Source of the DNA: a virus
Taxonomy: Duplodnaviria > Heunggongvirae > Uroviricota > Caudoviricetes
Virus record (IMG/VR): IMGVR_UViG_2740892016_000006
Location: 1-50,109 of that record
Length of the DNA: 50,109 nt
Reading direction: 5' to 3' (one strand)
Made by a program: the position numbers and the translations under genes. Each line of letters starts with the position of its first letter. The stretch's first letter is position 1. Of the stretch, positions 18,709 through 35,365 are shown one piece after another. Below the pieces are notes generated by a model. The model searched no databases. It was not told where the DNA came from and was given only the letters and a program-made list of their open reading frames with translations.

Positions 18709-19599
18709 ATGGGCGTCGTTAAGTTAGCTGATTACAGGCATAACCCTGTACAACATCAGGAGGCATCCAGTATGGGGTATGTCTCTATACACCGCCAGTT
18801 TATGGACAGCAGGCTCTATAAGGACTCTCAGGCAGTACATCTTTGGCTTCACTTAATCCTCAAGGCTAATCACGAATCTACTGTCGTCAATACGGATATC
18901 GGTCCGATAACTGTTGATCGCGGTCAGATGATAACTGGACGCCCGTCGCTGGTCAGAGAAACATTCATCCCCGACAACAAAGTTCGGAGCTTATTACGGA
19001 CTTTTGAGTCGAAAGGGATGCTTAATATTTCCTCGATGGGGAAGAAATTTAGCCTGTTTACAATCGTTAAATATGACGATTTTCAGGCAAAAAATTGTCC
19101 AACGGTTGTCCAACGGTTGTCCAACGCAAACACCAGTAATGGCGCGGCTCTCAGCGGAGATTGTCCAACGGTTGTCCAACGGTTGTCCATAAACAATAAT
19201 ATAAATAATATCTCTAATACTGACGTATTAGAGAGTGCCACAGCAGACAAAAAGTCTGACAAGAAAAAACCTTCCGTTAGCTGTCAGGATGTTGTCGATG
19301 CTTACCACGAAATCCTTCCTGAAGCGCCAAGAATCCGCGCACTGAATGACAAGCGTAAAAACCAGATCCGAACGTTCTGGCGCAAAGCCGGAGTGATAAC
19401 CCGCCAGCTTGACGGGCATGGGTTCACGATGCAGGACTGGAGAAATTATTTGAGCTACGTAGGAGAAAATTGCCGATGGATGTTCGAAGAGCGCCTAAAC
19501 CATCAACGCGGAACTGTCTGGCACAAAAAGGGATTTGATTTCCTGCTTAACGATAATACCTACCTGAAAGTTCGTGAGGGTGAACACGATGACCGATAA
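18709..19599 (+). CDS. Replication initiation protein (O / P22 gp18 analogue) containing the origin iterons
   Basis: Position after cII, iteron array inside the coding sequence, followed by helicase gene. Confidence 0.7.
   Translation: MGVVKLADYRHNPVQHQEASSMGYVSIHRQFMDSRLYKDSQAVHLWLHLILKANHESTVVNTDIGPITVDRGQMITGRPSLVRETFIPDNKVRSLLRTFESKGMLNISSMGKKFSLFTIVKYDDFQAKNCPTVVQRLSNANTSNGAALSGDCPTVVQRLSINNNINNISNTDVLESATADKKSDKKKPSVSCQDVVDAYHEILPEAPRIRALNDKRKNQIRTFWRKAGVITRQLDGHGFTMQDWRNYLSYVGENCRWMFEERLNHQRGTVWHKKGFDFLLNDNTYLKVREGEHDDR
19096..19189. repeat. Lambdoid origin iterons: two sets of three 11-bp repeats (TTGTCCAACGG) followed by an AT-rich stretch
   Basis: TGTCCAACGGTTGTCCAACGGTTGTCCAACG at 19096-19126 and again at 19162-19189, then AAACAATAATATAAATAATATC. 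Confidence 0.75.
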
Positions 19600-21025
19600 T
19601 TTTTATGCGCCGCCCCATAGCATCGAGGCAGAGCAGGCGGTGATTGGTGGATTGCTTCTGGATGATGACAGCAGTGAGCGCGTCCAGAAAGTTCTGGCGA
19701 TGCTGAAGCCTGATTCATTTTACAGCCGACCACACAAAATCCTTTTCGAAGAAATAACCAGAATGCACCGGGAGCAAAAGCCAGTAGATGGCCTGACGCT
19801 TTTCGATGAACTGGAGCGCAAATCGTTAACGGTGTCTGTTGGCGGTTTTGCTTATATCGCTGAGATCGCAAAGAACACGCCAAGCGCCGCAAACATCGTT
19901 GCCTATGCAATGCAGGTTCGCGAAACCGCAATGGAACGCTACGCCATCAACCGCATGACTGAAGCGACGGAATTGCTCTATTCCCGCAACGGAATGACTG
20001 CAACGCAGAAGTACGAAGCTATTCAGGCGATTTTCACGCAACTGACAGACCATGCAAAAACCGGATCGCGTCGCGGCCTTCGCTCATTTGGCGAGGTCAT
20101 GGAAGACTGGGTTAGCGACCTTGAGAAGCGATTTGACCCGTCAGGCGAACAACGAGGAATGAGCACAGGTATCCCATCGCTGGACAGGATGCTGTCACCG
20201 AAAGGTCTGGTGAAAGGCTCTCTGTTTGTCATTGGCGCTCGCCCTAAGATGGGGAAAACGACGCTATACAGCCAGATGGCAATCAACTGCGCAGTGCATG
20301 AGAAAAAGCCTGCTCTGATGTTCAGCCTTGAAATGCCAGGTGATCAGATACTGGAAAAACTGGTAGGACAGAAGTCAGGTGTTAACCCGAATATTTTTTA
20401 CCTTCCGGCGACAAATGACGCTGATGACGGCTATCAGGGTGATTACGATGGTGACTTCAACAGGGCGATCGAAACAGCAAATCGCTTGAGTGAAATCGAC
20501 CTGCTTTACATCGACGACACGCCGGGATTATCCCTGGCTCAAATCGTCAGCGAAAGCCGTCGAATCAAGCGAGAAAAAGGATGTGTTGGCATGATTCTGG
20601 TCGATTACCTGACACTAATGACCGCTGAGAAGGCCGATCGTAACGACCTTGCTTACGGCATGATCACCAAAGGACTGAAGAACCTTGCCAAAGAGCTTGA
20701 TTGCGTTGTTGTGCTTCTGACGCAGCTTAACCGCGCACTGGAAAGCCGAACCAATAAACGCCCATTACCAAGTGACTCACGAGATACAGGGCAGATTGAA
20801 CAGGATTGCGATTATTGGGTGGGGATCCATCGTGAAGGTGCTTTTGATGACAGTGTTCCACCTGGTGAAACCGAACTAATCCTTCGTCTCAATCGTCATG
20901 GCAATACCGGCACGGTGTATTGCATTCAGGCAAATGGCGCTATTTATGACACAGACCAACAGTCTGCTGAAATGCGCCGACGTGAACGCGAGGAACCGCA
21001 GTCCAAGAAGAAAGGAGGATTCTGA
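19574..21025 (+). CDS. DnaB-family replicative helicase (P22 gp12-like); start may be ATG at 19589
   Basis: N-terminal IEAEQAVIGGLLLD DnaB motif, Walker A GARPKMGKT, RecA-like C-terminal domain. Confidence 0.85.
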   Translation: MRVNTMTDNFYAPPHSIEAEQAVIGGLLLDDDSSERVQKVLAMLKPDSFYSRPHKILFEEITRMHREQKPVDGLTLFDELERKSLTVSVGGFAYIAEIAKNTPSAANIVAYAMQVRETAMERYAINRMTEATELLYSRNGMTATQKYEAIQAIFTQLTDHAKTGSRRGLRSFGEVMEDWVSDLEKRFDPSGEQRGMSTGIPSLDRMLSPKGLVKGSLFVIGARPKMGKTTLYSQMAINCAVHEKKPALMFSLEMPGDQILEKLVGQKSGVNPNIFYLPATNDADDGYQGDYDGDFNRAIETANRLSEIDLLYIDDTPGLSLAQIVSESRRIKREKGCVGMILVDYLTLMTAEKADRNDLAYGMITKGLKNLAKELDCVVVLLTQLNRALESRTNKRPLPSDSRDTGQIEQDCDYWVGIHREGAFDDSVPPGETELILRLNRHGNTGTVYCIQANGAIYDTDQQSAEMRRREREEPQSKKKGGF

Positions 21026-21100
21026 TGACCATCTACATCACTGAGCTAATAACAGGCCTGCTGGTAATCGCAGGCCTTTTTATTTGGGGGAGAGCGAAGT

Positions 21101-21427
21101 GTGGCTGACTGGCAAATTCCAATAATCATTCTTTCCGGAGCTTCGCTGGTTGCTGGCTTTATCCTTCTGAAAAAGCATAAAGACCGTGATCAAAAAGTCG
21201 AAGTTCTCTATGGGTATCCAGCGAACAGCACAACATGGCTGACCATTTACCACTACCGAAAATCAGGCCGCTGGGTATTCGAATGGGATGATCTGTTCGC
21301 TGAAAAGCGACCAAAGTCATGGGGAGACATCAGCGAATGCATGATGTTTGAAGAAAGAAAATTCGGCGCAACCCGAGAAGAGTTTAACGAAGCATGGGCG
21401 CGATTAAGTGAGAGAGGGTATTTGTGA
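21101..21427 (+). CDS. Hypothetical nin-region protein (108 aa), N-terminal hydrophobic segment
   Basis: ORF after helicase. Confidence 0.4.
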   Translation: MADWQIPIIILSGASLVAGFILLKKHKDRDQKVEVLYGYPANSTTWLTIYHYRKSGRWVFEWDDLFAEKRPKSWGDISECMMFEERKFGATREEFNEAWARLSERGYL

Positions 21428-21624
21428 GCAAGTACGAAAAATTAGATCAAAACATTCTTTCAATGCTGAGTGAAAGACCAACACCTGTTTTTGATATCTG
21501 GCTTAAATGGCGGAGCAATGGAATGTATATCGAAACCATCGATCGCCGTATGCAATACCTGAGAAAGAAAGGGCTTGTTGCAAATGTGCGTGGGAAGGGT
21601 TGGGTGAAAATTAACCTGTCATAA
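21424..21624 (+). CDS. Hypothetical nin-region protein (66 aa)
   Basis: ORF with 4-nt overlap to upstream gene. Confidence 0.4.
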   Translation: MSKYEKLDQNILSMLSERPTPVFDIWLKWRSNGMYIETIDRRMQYLRKKGLVANVRGKGWVKINLS

Positions 21625-21635
21625 CGGGGATTGAT

Positions 21636-21908
21636 ATGGACGAATCAAGAAAGCAGTTTGAAGAGTGGTTTAAAACCAAATATCACGTTTCAAGTGACGT
21701 GATGAAGATTATGCACATCAAGGTCGAGATTGCATGGGAGGCGTGGCAGGCATCGCGAGCAGCTATTGAAATAACCGCGCCAAAGTTTATCGACAGCAGA
21801 GAAGCATTATCCAAAGGGTTTACTGTTGATTATTCCAATGGCTTCGGTGATGCAATGGAGGCTTATGAGGAAAACATCCGCGCTGCTGGAATCAAAGTGA
21901 AGGAGTGA
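21636..21908 (+). CDS. Hypothetical nin-region protein (90 aa)
   Basis: ORF. Confidence 0.4.
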   Translation: MDESRKQFEEWFKTKYHVSSDVMKIMHIKVEIAWEAWQASRAAIEITAPKFIDSREALSKGFTVDYSNGFGDAMEAYEENIRAAGIKVKE

Positions 21909-22096
21909 GCATGAGTCGACGAAGTAGCTTTTTGGGGTTTGTAATATTCCTGTCCTGCACTGGTTACATCGTAATCTGGTCAATTTCGAACATTGACCGT
22001 GGCGGGGAATATCTCATTGTAATGTTCTTTCCTTTGTTTCTTGGGTGGTACGCCGCAAGGTTGCTGGAAGAATGGGGTTACAGGCATAAAAAATAA
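21905..22096 (+). CDS. Hypothetical small membrane protein (63 aa)
   Basis: Two hydrophobic segments. Confidence 0.35.
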   Translation: MSMSRRSSFLGFVIFLSCTGYIVIWSISNIDRGGEYLIVMFFPLFLGWYAARLLEEWGYRHKK

Positions 22097-22107
22097 AGGA
22101 GTATTCA

Positions 22108-22518
22108 GTGAAGCAAACAATCTTCCTCCGAACTAAGCAACAACAGCAAGCTGCAATAAATGCCATCCTCGCAACGCCACTCGATAAAGACAAGCCAGTC
22201 ACCATCCGCATTACTGACTACAAGCGCAACCTTGACCAGAACGCAAAATTTCACGCGATGCTGGCGGATATCGCACGTCAGGTTCAATGGTGCGATAAAT
22301 GGTTAAAACCAGAACAATGGAAGGTTTTGTTGATCAGCGGTCATGCAGTGGCTACAAAGCAGGAAGCTGATGTTTTGCCCGGCCTTGAAGGCGAATACGT
22401 CAACATTCGCGAAAGTAGCGCGCAGATGAGTGTGAAGCGTATGGCAAGTCTGATTGAGTACACGACAGCATGGGCTATTGGTCAGGGTGTCAGATTTACC
22501 GACAGGAGGTACGAATGA
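22108..22518 (+). CDS. ninB: NinB recombination protein
   Basis: Resembles recalled lambda NinB (...[22 protein letters not shown]...). Confidence 0.75.
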
Positions 22519-22691
22519 GACGACAGCGACGAAGTTTCACCGACATCATCTGTGAAAACTGCAAATACCTTCCAACGAAACGCTCCAGAAATAAACGCAA
22601 GCCAATCCCAAAAGAATCTGACGTAAAAACCTTCAACTACACGGCTCACCTGTGGGATATCCGGTGGCTAAGACATCGTGCGAGGAAATGA
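22515..22691 (+). CDS. ninE: NinE-like protein (start at internal Met overlapping ninB stop)
   Basis: [52 protein letters not shown] matches recalled lambda NinE. Confidence 0.65.
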
Positions 22692-23041
22692 CAATGGATT
22701 ATTCACAGTTAAGTGATTTTGAAATTAACAAGCGAGTATTTAAAGCGATAGTTGGGGCAAAACCATTAGGTTATCCGCACAACGCAGATGGACGGTCTGT
22801 CGGCAATGAATCAAATGGTAATTATCGATGGTACGACTACTGCAATAATCCTGAAGATGCAGAGCCGATTATCGTAGAGAACAGAATTGGCATTATTCCA
22901 GCGCCAGAAAATGGATTATGGAAGGCAGCGCATAGAAAAGTTGGCAGTGATAGTACCCCATATCATATGACTCAAGATGAAAACCCACTCCGCGCCGCCA
23001 TGATTGTCTTTCTCATGATGCAGGACGCCAATAATGCTTAG
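22691..23041 (+). CDS. Hypothetical nin-region protein (DUF2591-like?)
   Basis: ORF; start taken at MTMDYSQL. Confidence 0.45.
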   Translation, partial: TMDYSQLSDFEINKRVFKAIVGAKPLGYPHNADGRSVGNESNGNYRWYDYCNNPEDAEPIIVENRIGIIPAPENGLWKAAHRKVGSDSTPYHMTQDENPLRAAMIVFLMMQDANNA

Positions 23042-29562: not shown

Positions 29563-30979
29563 GTTATTACGCTTGCTGGAGGAAAAAGCACGTCGCTCGC
29601 ATCTGTACAGGTATCGCACTTATTTCGATACCAGATACGAGTGGCAAAAGAAGTTCATCTCGCTAAGTAGTAAATACTCTCAGGTTGCATTAATTGCTGC
29701 AAACCGTGTGGGAAAGACTGATACCGCCACCTATATCGACGCTATCCATGCAATAGGTGACTACCCTGATGGATGGGGTGGGTATAAGTTTGATCATGCC
29801 CCGCTAATCTGGTGTCTCGGTTACTCAGGGGAAAAGATTAGAGACCTTTTGCAAACACCGTTGCTGGGCAGAAAAACAGACGACGGCTGGGAAGGTGGTC
29901 TAATACCTGGAGATTTGATTGTTGATACAGAACCAATGACTGGTACGCCAAATGCAGTACGTTCTGCTTATATCAGGCATAAGTCAGGTCGGCTTTCGAA
30001 AATTCAGTTCTGGTCTTACTCGCAAGGTCAGCATGCACTAATGGGTGACAGTGTTGACTGGTTCCATATCGACGAAGAGCCAAAAGATGAAACTATCTAC
30101 CCGCAGGTTCTTACCCGTACAGCTACCGGAGACAAAGGTCGTGGTGGTCGTGGGATACTGACATTTACACCGGAAAACGGACGTACAGAGCTGGTTATTG
30201 GATTCATGGATAACCCCTCTGCGGCGCAAACGTGCATGAATGTTGGCTGGGATGATGCTCCACACCTTAGTGATAAGGTGAAAGAGGATTTGCTCTCATC
30301 ATTTCCTCCTCATCAACGAGACATGCGAACGAAGGGGATTCCTATGCTTGGTCATGGTCGTATTTATGACTTTAGCGAAGACACAATCACCTGTGATCCA
30401 TTCCCGATACCTCCCCACTGGATGGTGATTGATGGCATGGACTTTGGCTGGGATCACCCGCAGGCTCACATGCAATTAGTTATCGATAACGACAACGAAA
30501 CGTACTATGTGACCAGAGCATGGAAAGCGAGCCAGACATCTCCAGCAGAGGCATGGTCTTCAGTTAAGTCATGGGCATTAAAAGTACCCACAGCATGGCC
30601 GCAAGATGGATTACAAACAGAAAAAGGGTCAGGACTTCAGCAGAAGCAGTACTACCACGAAGCGGGGTTTCAGATGCTTCATGAACCAGCGCAATGGCCT
30701 GATGGTTCTAGATCAGTTGAGGCAGGCCTGTTCGAACTGTACGACCTGATGAAGCTGGGTAAATTTAAAGTATTCCGTGGACTTCGAGACTGGTTCGACG
30801 AATTTAACTATTACCATCGTGACGAGAAAGGGCGTATAGCAAAAACCCGCGATGACCTTCTTGATGCCACACGCTATGCATACATGATGCGCCGATACGC
30901 TAAGCGTTATGGCGATATTAACAAGCCAAAAGAGAAGAAAACACCAGCCCCAATCAGGCCCATCGCACGGAGAACTTAA
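29531..30979 (+). CDS. Terminase large subunit
   Basis: Size and position; ATPase then nuclease arrangement. Confidence 0.85.
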   Translation: MHNLDREQKLELLRLLEEKARRSHLYRYRTYFDTRYEWQKKFISLSSKYSQVALIAANRVGKTDTATYIDAIHAIGDYPDGWGGYKFDHAPLIWCLGYSGEKIRDLLQTPLLGRKTDDGWEGGLIPGDLIVDTEPMTGTPNAVRSAYIRHKSGRLSKIQFWSYSQGQHALMGDSVDWFHIDEEPKDETIYPQVLTRTATGDKGRGGRGILTFTPENGRTELVIGFMDNPSAAQTCMNVGWDDAPHLSDKVKEDLLSSFPPHQRDMRTKGIPMLGHGRIYDFSEDTITCDPFPIPPHWMVIDGMDFGWDHPQAHMQLVIDNDNETYYVTRAWKASQTSPAEAWSSVKSWALKVPTAWPQDGLQTEKGSGLQQKQYYHEAGFQMLHEPAQWPDGSRSVEAGLFELYDLMKLGKFKVFRGLRDWFDEFNYYHRDEKGRIAKTRDDLLDATRYAYMMRRYAKRYGDINKPKEKKTPAPIRPIARRT

Positions 30980-33145
30980 ATGGCCGACGAAAACAGACTC
31001 AATTCCATTCTGTGTAAGTTTGACGCGGACTGGATGGCGAGCGATGAAGCCAGAACCGAGGCGACAAATGACCTGTATTTTAGCCGAGTGTCGCAATGGG
31101 ATGACTGGCTATCAAACTACACCACCCTGCAATATCGCGGACAATTCGATGTTGTTCGCCCGGTGGTCAGGAAACTGGTCGCAGAGATGCGCCGTAACCC
31201 TATCGACGTTCTATTCAGACCAAAAGATGGCGCTAATCCTGATGCTGCCGATGTGTTGATGGGAATGTATCGTACTGATATGCGCCATAACACGGCAAAG
31301 ATTGCCGTTAACGTTGGCGTTCGTGAGCAGATAGAGTCTGGCGTTGGTGCATGGCGTCTGGTCACGCAGTACGAAGACAACGATCCAACAAGCAACAATC
31401 AGGTAATCCGACGCCTGCCAATCCATGAAGCCTGCTCACACGTCATATGGGACGCCAACAGCAAGCAGATGGATAAGAGCGACGCTAAGCACTGCACGGT
31501 GATTAACGCTTTGTCACGCAATGGCTGGAAAGAGTTCGCGGAGGATTACGGTATTGATCCGGACACCTTGCCATCTTTCCAGAATCCGAACGATACATGG
31601 CTGTTTCCGTGGGTATCGAATGATGTCGTCTACGTCGCTGAGTATTACGAGGTCGAAGAGAAGAAAGAGAAAGTCTTCATCTACCGCGACCCGCTGACAG
31701 GTGAGCCGGTCAGCTATTACCAGCAGGATATCAAAGACGTCATCGACGACCTGGCTAATCGTGGATTCATTAAGGTAGCAGAGCGCAAGGTGAAGCGTCG
31801 GCGTGTGTATAAGTCGATCATCACCTGCACGCAGATACTGAAAGACCGCGAGAAGATAGCCGGAGAGCATATTCCAATCGTTCCAGTGTATGGCGAATGG
31901 TCATTCGCTGGTGACAAGGAGTGCTACGAAGGAGTGGTAAGGCTGACGAAAGACGGTCAGCGCCTTCGTAACATGATTATGTCGTTCAACGCCGATATTG
32001 TTGCTCGTTCACCGAAGAAGAAACCGACCTTCTTCCCTGAGCAAATCGAAGGCTACGAATACATGTACGGTGGAAATGATGACTATCCGTACTATCTGCA
32101 GAACAGGACCGATGAAAACGGTAACGACCTGCCGATTGGTCCAATCTCCTACATGGAAAACCCTGAAGTGCCGCAAGCCAACGCTTACATGCTTGAGGCT
32201 GCCACCAACGCAGTGAAAGAGGTGGCTAGTCTTGGCGTGGATGCGCAGGCGGCAAACTCTCAGGTCGCTTTCGATACCGTCAATCAACTGAACATGCGGG
32301 CAGACCTTGAGACATACGTGTTTCAGGATAACCTGGCTACCGCAATGCGACGTGATGGCGAGATTTATGCCTCAATGGTCAACGATATTTATGACGTTCC
32401 TCGTCATGTAACGCTGACACTTGAAGATGGAAGCGAGAAAGACGTTCAACTCTATGCGCAAGTTGTCGATTACCAGTCCGGCAATGTGGTCACACTCAAC
32501 GACATTCGTGGTCGCTATGAGTGCTATACGGACGTTGGGCCATCCTTCCAGAGCATGAAGGAACAGAACCGCGCAGAGATTCAGGAGTTACTCACCAAGG
32601 TTCCGCAAGGTACTCCAGAGTTCCAGATGCTGATGCTGCAATACTTCACGCTGCTTGACGGTAAAGGCGTCGAGATGATGCGAGAGTACGCGAACAAGCA
32701 ACTGGTGATGATGGGGCTGAAGAAACCAGAAACACCTGAAGAGATGGAGATGGTACAGCAGGCACAACAACAGCCGCAGCAGCCATCAGCAGAGCAAATT
32801 CAGGCGCAGGGTATCCTTCTGCAAGGTCAGGCTGAATTGCTCAAGGCAGAGAACCAACAGGCGCAGATTCAGGTTGAAGCTGCCAAGGTTGAAGCTCAAA
32901 ACCAACTCAACGCCGCGAAGATTGCAGAAATCTTCAACAATATGGACCTCGACAAGCAGGCAGAACTGCGTGAGTACCTCAAGCTCGTAGGTCAATTCCA
33001 GCAACAGCGCAGCAAAGATGCTCGTGCTAACGCTGAGCTGCTTCTTAAAGATGCAGACCAGACTCATTCACAACGCATGGATTTCGCGAATCTTATGCGT
33101 CAAGTTCAAATCCCCTCCGGCGGAGTAGCCGAGACACCTCAATAA
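30980..33145 (+). CDS. Portal protein (P22 gp1-like, 721 aa)
   Basis: Size and position after terminase; Gln-rich C-terminal coiled coil typical of P22-like portals. Confidence 0.85.
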
Positions 33146-33158
33146 GAGAGAGTTAATC

Positions 33159-34070
33159 ATGGACCAAACCACCGACATTCAGGCTTCTGAAGAATTAACC
33201 CTGCCCGGCAATCATGCAGCGGCATCTGCTGATGGCTTAGTTGTCGATAATGCCAACGACAACGCAGGTCAGGAAGAAGGCTTCGAGATTGTCCTGAAAG
33301 ACGATGAGAAACCAAAACAAGACCCGGCAACTAATGCTGAATTTGCCCGTCGCCGCATCGAACGCAAACGCCAGCGTGAGCTTGAGCAGCAGATGGAAGC
33401 GGTTAAGCGTGGAGAGTTGCCGGAGCACCTGCGGGTGAACCCTGAGTTACCAAAACAACCAGACCCTAACGATTATCTTTCCGAAGATGCACTGGCTAAG
33501 TACGACTATGACCAGAGCCGCGCACTGGCTGCCTTCCAGCAGGCAAACAGTGAATGGCAGATCAAGGCTATGGACGCACGAAGCCAGGCTGTCGCCGAGC
33601 AGGGTCGCAAAACTCAGGAGTTCACCCAGCAATCAGCGCAATACGTCGAGGCAGCCCGTAAGCACTACGACGCAGCGGAAAAGCTCAATATCCCTGACTA
33701 TCAGGAGAAAGAGGATGCATTCATGCAACTGGTGCCGCCAGCAGTCGGTGCCGACATCATGCGCCTCTTCCCGGAGAAATCCGCCGCTCTCATGTATCAC
33801 CTTGGTGCTAATCCTGAGAAAACACGCCAGTTGCTGGCGATGGACGGGCAATCCGCGCTGATTGAACTCACTCGACTGTCAGAACGTTTAACTCTCAAGC
33901 CTCGAGCCAAGCCTGTTTCAGAAGCCCCGTTACCTGATGAACCCATTCAGGGACATGCTGTTGCTGCAAATATCTCTGCGATTGAAAAGCAGATGGAGGC
34001 GGCAGCAAACAAAGGGGATGTAGAGACGTACCGCAAGCTCAAGGCGCAACTGAATAAAGGAATTCGATAA
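33159..34070 (+). CDS. Scaffolding protein (P22 gp8-like)
   Basis: Helical, charged, between portal and coat. Confidence 0.75.
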
Positions 34071-35365
34071 TGGCATTAAATGAAGGTCAACTGGTCACGT
34101 ATGCTCTGGATGAAATCATCGAAACCGTCCAGAACCTGACGCCAATGGCGTCCAAAGTGACAAAATACACCCCTCCGGCAGAATCCATGCAGCGTTCAAG
34201 CAACACCGTATGGATGCCTGTTGAGCAGGAAGCGCCAACCCAGACTGGCTGGGATTTAACTGGCAACGCAACCGGGATTCTGGAGCTGTCCGTGAAATGC
34301 AACATGGGCGATCCGGATAACGATTTCTTCGAGCTTCGTGCAGATGACCTGCGTGATGAGCGTTCTTACCGTCGCCGCATCCAGGCATCCGCCAAAAAAC
34401 TGGCGAATAACATTGAGTCAGCGATTGCCAAACAGGCAACTGAAATGGGCTCACTTGTTGTTCACGATACCCGCGCAATTGGTCCATCTACTGGCCTGTC
34501 TGGCTGGGATTTTGTGTCTGATGCAGAGCGCCTGATGTTCTCCCGTGAGCTAAACCGCGATATGGGCATCAGTTACTTCCTGAACCCTGATGATTACCGC
34601 AAAGCAGGCCGCAACCTGGTAGATGGTGACATCTTTGGGCGCGTTCCTGAGGAAGCGTATCGCAACGGTACTATTCAGCGTCAGATTGCTGGCTTTGATG
34701 AAATTCTTCGCTCACCGAAACTTCCGGCAGTTACCAAGTCAACCGCTACTGGTGTAACTGTGTCTGGAGCGCAGAAGTTTAAGCCGCAGGCATACACCCT
34801 TGATACCGATGGTAACAAGGAGAACGTCGACAACCGTGTTGCAACGGTGACCGTATCCTCCACCACCGGATTTAAGCGCGGAGACAAAATCAGCTTCACT
34901 GGTGTGAAATTCCTGTCTCAGATGGCGAAGAACGTGCTGACTGATGATGCGACTTTCTCAATCACCCGTGTGATCGATAGTACTCACATCGAAATTACGC
35001 CGAAGCCGATTGCACTGGATGACGCGTCACTGACAAAAGAAGAGAAGGCTTACGCTAACGTAAACACCTCTCTTGCTGATACCACTCCGGTAAACGTTCT
35101 GAACGTGGCAACAACCACCGCTAACGTGTTCTGGGCTGATGACTCAATCCGCCTACTGTCTCAGCCGATCCCGGTAACCCATGAACTGTTTGCTGGCATG
35201 AAAACGTCTTCCTTCAGCATTCCTGGTATTGGTGTTAACGGCATCTTCGCAACGCAGGGTGATATCAATACTCTGTCTGGTAAGTGCCGTATTGCTGTGT
35301 GGTATTCAGCATGTGCTGTACGGCCAGAGGCAATTGGTGTTGGTCTGCCTAACCAGACCGCGTGA
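34070..35365 (+). CDS. Major capsid (coat) protein (P22 gp5-like, 431 aa)
   Basis: Size and position. Confidence 0.85.

Follow-up and report, generated by a model that had tools for sequence, protein, structure and literature searches.

The closest known entity to the locus considered here is the group of genes 45–48 of Shigella phage Sf6. The nin regions of lambda and P22 are described as non-essential, their genes being so closely packed that stop codons overlap the next starts (PMC8022706). In Sf6 itself, isolates 3-7 (deletion 30436–34441) and 7-3 (deletion 30641–34635) are viable and lyse earlier (PMC5630979); by the Sf6 coordinates, these deletions take away genes 47 and 48 entirely, and gene 46 for the most part or in part. 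The locus is the interval 21101–22096 of the IMG/VR record IMGVR_UViG_2740892016_000006, whose 50,109-nucleotide (nt) stretch is called the window and provides the numbering throughout. This interval is probably the accessory slot between the terminator tR2 and ninB in the pR (early-right) operon of an E. coli prophage of the lambdoid, P22-like kind, filled by four independent, separately assorting small genes. We denote them, as open reading frames, ORF1 to ORF4. The features of the slot and its flanks are as follows.

19574..21025, plus strand: DnaB-type replicative helicase, left flank (Pfam DnaB_C, PF03796, E 3.2e-60; DnaB, PF00772, E 8.6e-31; phrog_19, E 4e-137)
21025..21108, plus strand: ninA-like hydrophobic mini-ORF of 27 codons, MTIYITELITGLLVIAGLFIWGRAKCG (AGGAGG and start; equivalent of Sf6 gene 45)
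21054..21087, plus strand: tR2, lambda-type intrinsic terminator (terminator scan; hairpin 21054–21077, then T run)
21101..21427, plus strand: ORF1, 108 amino acids (aa), GTG start (phrog_5903, E 2.5e-74; equivalent of Sf6 gene 46)
21424..21624, plus strand: ORF2, 66 aa, GTG start (phrog_7185, E 1.2e-34; equivalent of Sf6 gene 47)
21636..21908, plus strand: ORF3, 90 aa, ATG start (phrog_343, E 3.1e-29; Phage_phiTE_015 family)
21911..22096, plus strand: ORF4, 61 aa, ATG start (coding signature, without a family match)
22108..22518, plus strand: ninB, Orf-family recombination mediator, right flank (Pfam NinB, PF05772, E 4.2e-54, full length)

The early-right order is a CII-like gene, a replication initiator (phrog_345), the DnaB-type helicase, the mini-ORF with tR2, ORF1, ORF2, ORF3, ORF4 and ninB. 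An earlier note on this DNA had placed four packed ORFs of 108, 66, 90 and 63 aa between a helicase and ninB. The Pfam matches of both flanks bear out the location, and the coordinates and the first three sizes stand; the size of ORF4 has to be corrected to 61 aa from the ATG at 21911. The GTG at 21905 would give 63 aa. However, AAGGAG is found 6 nt upstream of the ATG, the four database relatives of ORF4 start with MSRR or MDRR, and the three full-length ones are 61 aa long, so that the ATG is almost certainly the start.

The four genes leave little free space: the ORF2 start is joined to the ORF1 stop by a GTGA overlap, and the other gaps are 2–11 nt. As much as 98.9% of the interval is taken up by plus-strand ORFs that are 60 aa or longer, compared to a mean of 10% (standard deviation 14%) and a maximum of 78% in 5000 shuffles. 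That ORF1, ORF2 and ORF3 are real genes is, at the least, nearly certain; for ORF4 it is highly probable.

The similarity to Sf6 is very close in the left part of the slot and ends within it. The DNA is 98.4% identical over window positions 21040–21661, with the same tR2 and boundary sequence; ORF1 and gp46 share 97%, and ORF2 and gp47 98.5%, of their amino acids. Gene 48 of Sf6 is a Phage_phiTE_015-family relative of ORF3, but its middle and C-terminal half are different, and the identity is only 42%. Where the window has ORF4, Sf6 has gene 49 (HK022 gp60-like). The replication modules of the two are related, whereas the ninB type differs. The slot occupies the same place, from the replication genes to ninB, as lambda ren and as ninA of P22 and phage 21. 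However, lambda ren is situated before tR2, and all four genes of the window lie after it.

The slot itself is highly variable. The exact 34-mer of tR2 occurs in more than 120 IMG/VR contigs, of which 120 were taken for a census, and 111 of these have ninB downstream. In 59 of the 111 the slot is empty, ninB starting about 50 nt after tR2. The remaining 52 carry 250–1300 nt made of about a dozen interchangeable cassettes, among them the following.

ORF3 family: 29 contigs
phrog_1165 (68 aa, two hydrophobic helices): 25 contigs
DUF7301: 14 contigs
ORF1: 13 contigs
ORF2: 8 contigs
ORF4: 5 contigs
60-aa two-helix hairpin protein, without a PHROG: 2 contigs
DUF4752 (hydrophobic N-terminus): 2 contigs
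Lar-like restriction alleviation gene: 1 contig

The four genes of the window also part from each other. Among 80 IMG/VR loci with ORF1, it stands alone in 32, and in 48 ORF2 comes next, always at the same offset; in 46 loci ORF2 is in turn followed by a gene of the ORF3 family (35–96% identity), and ORF4 is present in four. In these 80 loci ORF1 is found behind three different kinds of replication module. DNA homology to the window breaks at 21020, 21100–10, 21430, 21660–70, 21740–70, 21880–920, 22090–110 and 22500–20, that is, at gene borders and at two conserved stretches inside ORF3. Out of 5426 complete E. coli genomes, 108 contain ORF1, 64 contain ORF2 and 195 (3.6%) contain ORF4, and just two have the whole array in colinear order. 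An obligate ORF1–ORF2 pair was considered and rejected, since ORF1 lacks ORF2 in the 32 loci mentioned above and ORF2 relatives occur without ORF1 in other elements. Further, in phage vB_SpuS_NX263 the two families are about 20 kb apart.

In this pattern we see the classical mosaicism of lambdoid phages, located in their compact and non-essential nin region, and the window contributes a new combination of accessory cassettes of known type in an ordinary mosaic slot. We consider it very likely that all four genes are non-essential accessory cassettes. The comparison of related phage contigs, with the slot mosaic and often empty, agrees with the variable early-right slot that the earlier note had suspected.

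The pool of cassettes in the analysed loci (L087–L204) appears rich in small predicted membrane proteins other than ORF1 and ORF4: phrog_1165 is found in 25 of the 52 occupied slots, and the 60-aa and DUF4752 proteins add to it.

The four genes come just after the terminator. The tR2 stem has 8 base pairs (bp), six of them G–C, followed by TTTTTATTTGG; tR2 is also annotated in Sf6 and in phage Lahn2. The hairpin is contained in the ninA-like mini-ORF, directly ahead of ORF1. The mini-ORF has AGGAGG 7 nt before its ATG, which overlaps the helicase stop (TGATG). In Sf6 the same stretch is named gene 45, "similar to phage 21 NinA", and contains tR2, all within the "boundary sequence bsq6". In about 150 related contigs the DNA shared with the window starts at approximately 21020, and in about 100 of them it ends at 21100–21110. 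The mini-ORF, conserved within the boundary sequence of more than 150 related contigs, may be translated, or it may be simply carried along with the terminator.

A scan for the sigma-70 consensus yielded no promoter-like sites in 20800–22600, where 2.4 were expected, and an Rfam scan of the same interval yielded no RNA family. As no such promoter accompanies the four genes, which come immediately after tR2, it is fairly likely that they are expressed solely through tR2 read-through. In lambda, transcription past tR2 needs antitermination. By the same scheme, N-antiterminated pR transcripts would cross tR2 in the delayed-early lytic phase, and the four ORFs, given the GTGA overlap and the short gaps, would be translated as one tightly or translationally coupled string.

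ORF1 has a single hydrophobic segment, residues 4–25 (Kyte–Doolittle, 17-residue window, maximum 2.38). The AlphaFold2 model, with the predicted local distance difference test score (pLDDT) of 85, has a helix at residues 5–27. The overall architecture is a predicted N-terminal membrane helix, then a stretch rich in lysine and arginine, and finally the conserved domain (about 80 aa), formed by four strands and a C-terminal helix. ORF1 is predicted to be anchored in the inner membrane in the N-out/C-in orientation, the conserved domain being cytoplasmic because of the basic KKHKDRDQK following the helix (the positive-inside rule). The match to phrog_5903, a family of unknown function, spans residues 1–108 and profile positions 1–108.

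Relatives of ORF1 form 58 protein clusters. In their alignment (34–64% identity) the hydrophobic N-terminus is variable, and the core retains 15 invariant residues (YGYP..WLT.YH.R..FE.D.LF). In some relatives, e.g. Goslar gp236, the membrane helix is replaced by a short amphipathic or charged N-terminus. The ratio of nonsynonymous to synonymous substitution rates (dN/dS) against a 64%-identical relative (the P0025 gene) is 0.10, which, together with the invariant core, demonstrates purifying selection. The domain is found in the virulent phages Goslar, KookSpook (112 kb), Skatevirus and Deseoctovirus, which fits a function in the lytic cycle. It is a widely shared early phage domain, strongly conserved in unrelated temperate and virulent enterobacterial phages.

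The genomic context of the ORF1 relatives is recurrent. Lambdoid relatives are located after DnaB or lambda-P genes; in the contigs L207 and L208 the relative is directly downstream of the DNA polymerase A gene; and in Skatevirus and Deseoctovirus it lies, often unannotated, between the primase gene and that of a superfamily 2 (SF2) helicase. Goslar gp236 and the KookSpook homologue have no adjoining replication genes.

Several details of these loci may be added. In the metagenomic phage contigs L207 and L218 (up to 148 kb), the 47%-identical relative belongs to the polymerase-A cluster, with HNH-endonuclease genes intervening in L218, and heads a long run of small unannotated genes. In Salmonella phage Seszw_1 (L215, about 2500–2720) and phage INT59 (L216), an ORF1-core homologue is situated in the unannotated gap that separates the divergent primase gene from the SF2-helicase gene in Skatevirus phages. 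The equivalent of the Skatevirus gene is annotated in phage S192 as an 87-aa hypothetical protein.

ORF2 is basic, with 13 lysines and arginines versus 6 aspartates and glutamates, and has no hydrophobic segment. It matches phrog_7185, again a family of unknown function, over residues 1–66 and profile positions 1–79, and has 19 relatives among 1.84 billion cluster representatives. Compared with the 70%-identical gene of phage ZK22, the proportion of nonsynonymous differences (pN) is 0.24 and that of synonymous differences (pS) is 0.84. All weak, sub-threshold matches of ORF2 are to winged-helix families (Crp, Rrf2, MarR, LexA, HxlR, IscR, ETS) and fall in the same region, at residues 33–63 for Rrf2, Crp, MarR, LexA and HxlR. 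The best Pfam scores, 13.6 bits for HTH_Crp_2 (cut-off 27) and 11.8 bits for Rrf2 (cut-off 30), are below the gathering thresholds; weak Rrf2 matches are seen in five of 15 ORF2 relatives.

In an hhalign comparison of the ORF2 family profile with IscR, whose sequence was entered by hand, residues 16–61 aligned with the probability of 82%, and phmmer matched the same residues to PDB chains of IscR with E 0.3–1.8. In the helix-turn-helix (HTH) and wing region of IscR, LRKNGLVSSVRGPGG corresponds to LRKKGLVANVRGKGW of ORF2. On the other hand, ORF2 is only 66 aa long, lacks the dimerisation helix and the cluster-binding region, and scores far under the thresholds of the Rrf2/IscR families. These weak similarities suggest that ORF2 might be a winged helix-turn-helix DNA-binding protein. 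Elsewhere, with no ORF1 nearby, ORF2 relatives are found after a ParB-like gene in Skatevirus and between an HTH_3 gene and an AAA_25 ATPase.

The ORF2 homologue of Salmonella phage ZK22 (63 aa, L210 1501–1692) is deposited as "flagellin", which looks like an annotation error; its 57-aa neighbour is deposited as "activating signal cointegrator".

ORF3 is a soluble helical or alpha-beta protein of the Phage_phiTE_015/phrog_343 family, whose function is unknown. It has no hydrophobic segment, its AlphaFold2 model has the pLDDT of 80, and its relatives form 712 protein clusters. The assignment to Phage_phiTE_015 (PF26207) is indirect: precomputed PF26207.1 matches exist for the 99%-identical protein P0063 and for all 120 relatives among the matches listed. 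The N-terminal MDESRKQFEEWF and central W.AWQASR motifs are common to ORF3 and the family; at that, ORF3 lacks an insert of about 15 residues present in the variants named by the Prokaryotic Genome Annotation Pipeline (PGAP). PGAP gives the name "phiTE_015 family protein" to some variants only, and the one closest to ORF3 (strain GN04171) is "hypothetical". An NCBIfam scan of the variants so named yielded no match, the model behind the name being outside the scanned set.

ORF3 is an intragenic mosaic. Its N-terminal half is paired elsewhere with other C-terminal halves, and vice versa; the halves meet at the conserved W.AWQASRAAIEI, and DNA breakpoints lie at 21660–70 and 21740–70. The dN/dS ratio was dropped as a coding test for this gene, as intragenic mosaicism makes the obtained values (0.2–1.0) meaningless. 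The family at large is mosaic within the gene as well: alternative N-terminal, middle and C-terminal segments are shuffled, with MDESRKQFEEWF and W.AWQASRAAIEI serving as recombination joints.

ORF4 has two hydrophobic segments, residues 5–26 and 35–52 (Kyte–Doolittle, 17-residue window, maximum 2.12). We infer a two-helix hairpin in the inner membrane, and predict the N-in/C-in orientation because of RR and RHKK at its ends (the positive-inside rule). The claim of the earlier note that two of the four ORFs have hydrophobic segments thus holds, with one segment in ORF1, two in ORF4, and none in ORF2 and ORF3. No match to ORF4 was found in Pfam, PHROG, NCBIfam and PADLOC.

Evidence that this is a gene comes from a relative in the unrelated contig L005, where it directly follows a DnaB helicase. 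The two are 72% identical at the amino-acid level and 75% at the nucleotide level, and the relative keeps the frame, the length of 61 aa, the Shine–Dalgarno sequence and both hydrophobic helices. The numbers of differences at codon positions 1, 2 and 3 are 17, 8 and 22, dN/dS is 0.19, and the other two forward frames contain stops. In the slot, ORF4 forms a discrete cassette, homology breaking off on either side of it. This 61-aa membrane protein under purifying selection is missing from PHROGs, Pfam and NCBIfam, and annotation pipelines often pass over its gene.

Similarity searches do not assign any of the four proteins to a characterised family. The earlier note had recognised no family for them; this stands for ORF4, and has to be amended for ORF1, ORF2 and ORF3, which already are in PHROGs 5903, 7185 and 343. 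It also had named the finding that would overturn it, all four being conserved nin-region proteins of known families. None of the four ORFs matches the Nin families (NinB, NinD, NinE, NinF, NinG, NinH, NinX), Ren or other lambda protein families in Pfam (E up to 1) or PHROGs (0.01), and in the same Pfam run the neighbouring ninB scores E 4e-54. Scans of the four proteins and the mini-ORF against Pfam, NCBIfam and PADLOC gave nothing above threshold; in PADLOC-DB, which covers defence systems only, ORF1, ORF3 and ORF4 have no match and ORF2 has a single one, E 0.028, to a CARF-associated HTH. PDB sequence searches with ORF1, ORF2 and ORF3 and an ORF2 profile search gave only chance-level matches (DUSP10, sedlin, haemagglutinin HA2). 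The literature, searched by family (PF26207, phiTE_015), by protein accession and by terms for accessory regions or counter-defence, yielded no paper dealing with these proteins. Hence the homology and structure searches gave no relative of known function for any of the four, and the earlier description, a variable early-right slot with no characterised family, is supported.

The one hint at function comes from the slot. The Lar-like restriction alleviation gene (Pfam PF14354, PHROG 599) occupies the same tR2–ninB slot in other lambdoid prophages and is the sole cassette in its gene pool with an assigned function, although its sequence is unlike all four ORFs: none of them matches PF14354 or PHROG 599/6422, whereas the Lar-like cassette from another contig does. 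By analogy with this only slot cassette of known function, the four products might be directed at the host cell or at rival phages rather than serve core phage functions, two of them at the inner membrane and one on DNA. Candidate roles during lytic development would be takeover of the host, counter-defence, or keeping competing phages out at the membrane; none of the four would be needed for phage growth in the laboratory. We rate such a host-directed early function at about even chances. Within it, the Lar-like cassette and the fact that virulent phages share the ORF1 domain make us lean to host takeover or counter-defence in lytic growth. It would be reasonable to include the ORF1 domain in functional screens for early phage proteins directed at the host, and the dozen or so cassettes of the slot census, of which several are small membrane proteins, form a short list of candidates for exclusion or counter-defence.

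Several points weigh against this picture as a whole. The functions suggested for the four proteins are proposals, with no sequence or structural relative of known function found for any of them. The winged-helix call for ORF2 relies on sub-threshold matches and one pairwise profile comparison. Dispensability was seen in Sf6 on one laboratory host, and covers neither this prophage nor ORF4. The promoter scan used the sigma-70 consensus only, and there may be a weak or non-canonical internal promoter. Finally, the patchwork history of ORF3 makes its dN/dS uninformative.

A narrower variant is that, early in infection, at least one of the four proteins inactivates an immunity system of the host or of a prophage, be it restriction, a membrane-bound sensor or abortive infection. 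The Lar-like gene in the same slot of other phages points in this direction, as does the ORF1 domain in unrelated virulent phages of the same hosts. Further, the genes are small, fast-assorting, non-essential and early, and occur in about 1–4% of E. coli genomes; such early genes of patchy occurrence are the typical anti-defence pattern. However, there is no similarity to characterised anti-defence proteins (with PADLOC limited to defence systems, as stated above), and integral membrane proteins, such as two of the four are predicted to be, are uncommon among the known inhibitors of restriction or CRISPR. Counter-defence in this strict sense is a possibility, albeit a rather unlikely one.

In an extended version, the tR2–ninB slot would be a hotspot dedicated to early proteins that are small and directed to the membrane (ORF1, ORF4, phrog_1165, the 60-aa hairpin, DUF4752 and the ninA-like peptide), with the FEWDDLF domain of ORF1 targeting one conserved enterobacterial host factor and ORF4 acting as an exclusion or membrane-sensor-blocking peptide. 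This is speculative and, taken together, improbable. If true, the ORF1 domain, shared by temperate lambdoid phages, a jumbo phage, KookSpook and Skatevirus/Deseoctovirus, would represent a new class of host-takeover or counter-defence effector, and ORF4 would be an uncatalogued peptide of the above kind.

The context of the ORF1 relatives suggests a different role, in which ORF1, possibly with ORF2, assists or regulates phage DNA replication, e.g. by holding a host replication factor at the membrane or titrating it there. Indeed, these relatives repeatedly adjoin replication genes across genome types (DnaB or lambda-P, polymerase A, primase and SF2 helicase), ORF2 relatives are found after ParB-like or HTH genes or ahead of a replication-type AAA_25 ATPase, and the core motif FEWDDLF is acidic and aromatic. 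But Sf6 still grows without genes 46 and 47, and its lysis is faster; the adjacency in lambdoid phages follows from where the slot lies; no replication genes adjoin Goslar gp236 or the KookSpook homologue; and ORF1 and ORF2 assort independently. Hence a replication accessory is distinctly improbable. Mimicry of a clamp-binding motif or of the SSB tail by the ORF1 motif was also considered, as no more than an idea.

Slightly less credible still is that ORF1 and ORF4 are morons, made from the prophage and protecting the lysogen, for instance by superinfection exclusion. Small inner-membrane phage proteins often are exclusion factors, and predicted small membrane proteins seem to abound in the slot (phrog_1165, the 60-aa two-helix cassette, DUF4752). 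At the same time, the genes belong to the repressor-controlled pR operon, behind tR2 and with no promoter-like site, and the flanking early genes are translationally coupled. Further, the ORF1 domain occurs also in strictly virulent phages, and there is no PADLOC match.

The weakest alternative, very improbable, is that ORF4 (possibly also the ninA-like mini-ORF) is not a gene, the stretch before ninB being an untranslated spacer: PGAP and the annotators of phage Gally left this stretch of about 200 bp blank (L002, L003, L004), several E. coli genomes have "none" under the ORF4 match, and ORF4 has no library family and merely four clusters among 5.8 billion proteins worldwide, but the breakpoints bounding the cassette and the third-position-biased differences from the L005 relative, with its frame, Shine–Dalgarno sequence and helices kept, argue against that, and the spurious-ORF explanation was rejected given the dN/dS of 0.19 and the preserved length.

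To the right of the slot, a 129-aa ORF at 22652–23041, between the ninE-like and ninF genes, is another nin-region cassette. In the closest E. coli genome its equivalent (L003 4655–5056) is labelled "hypothetical protein".

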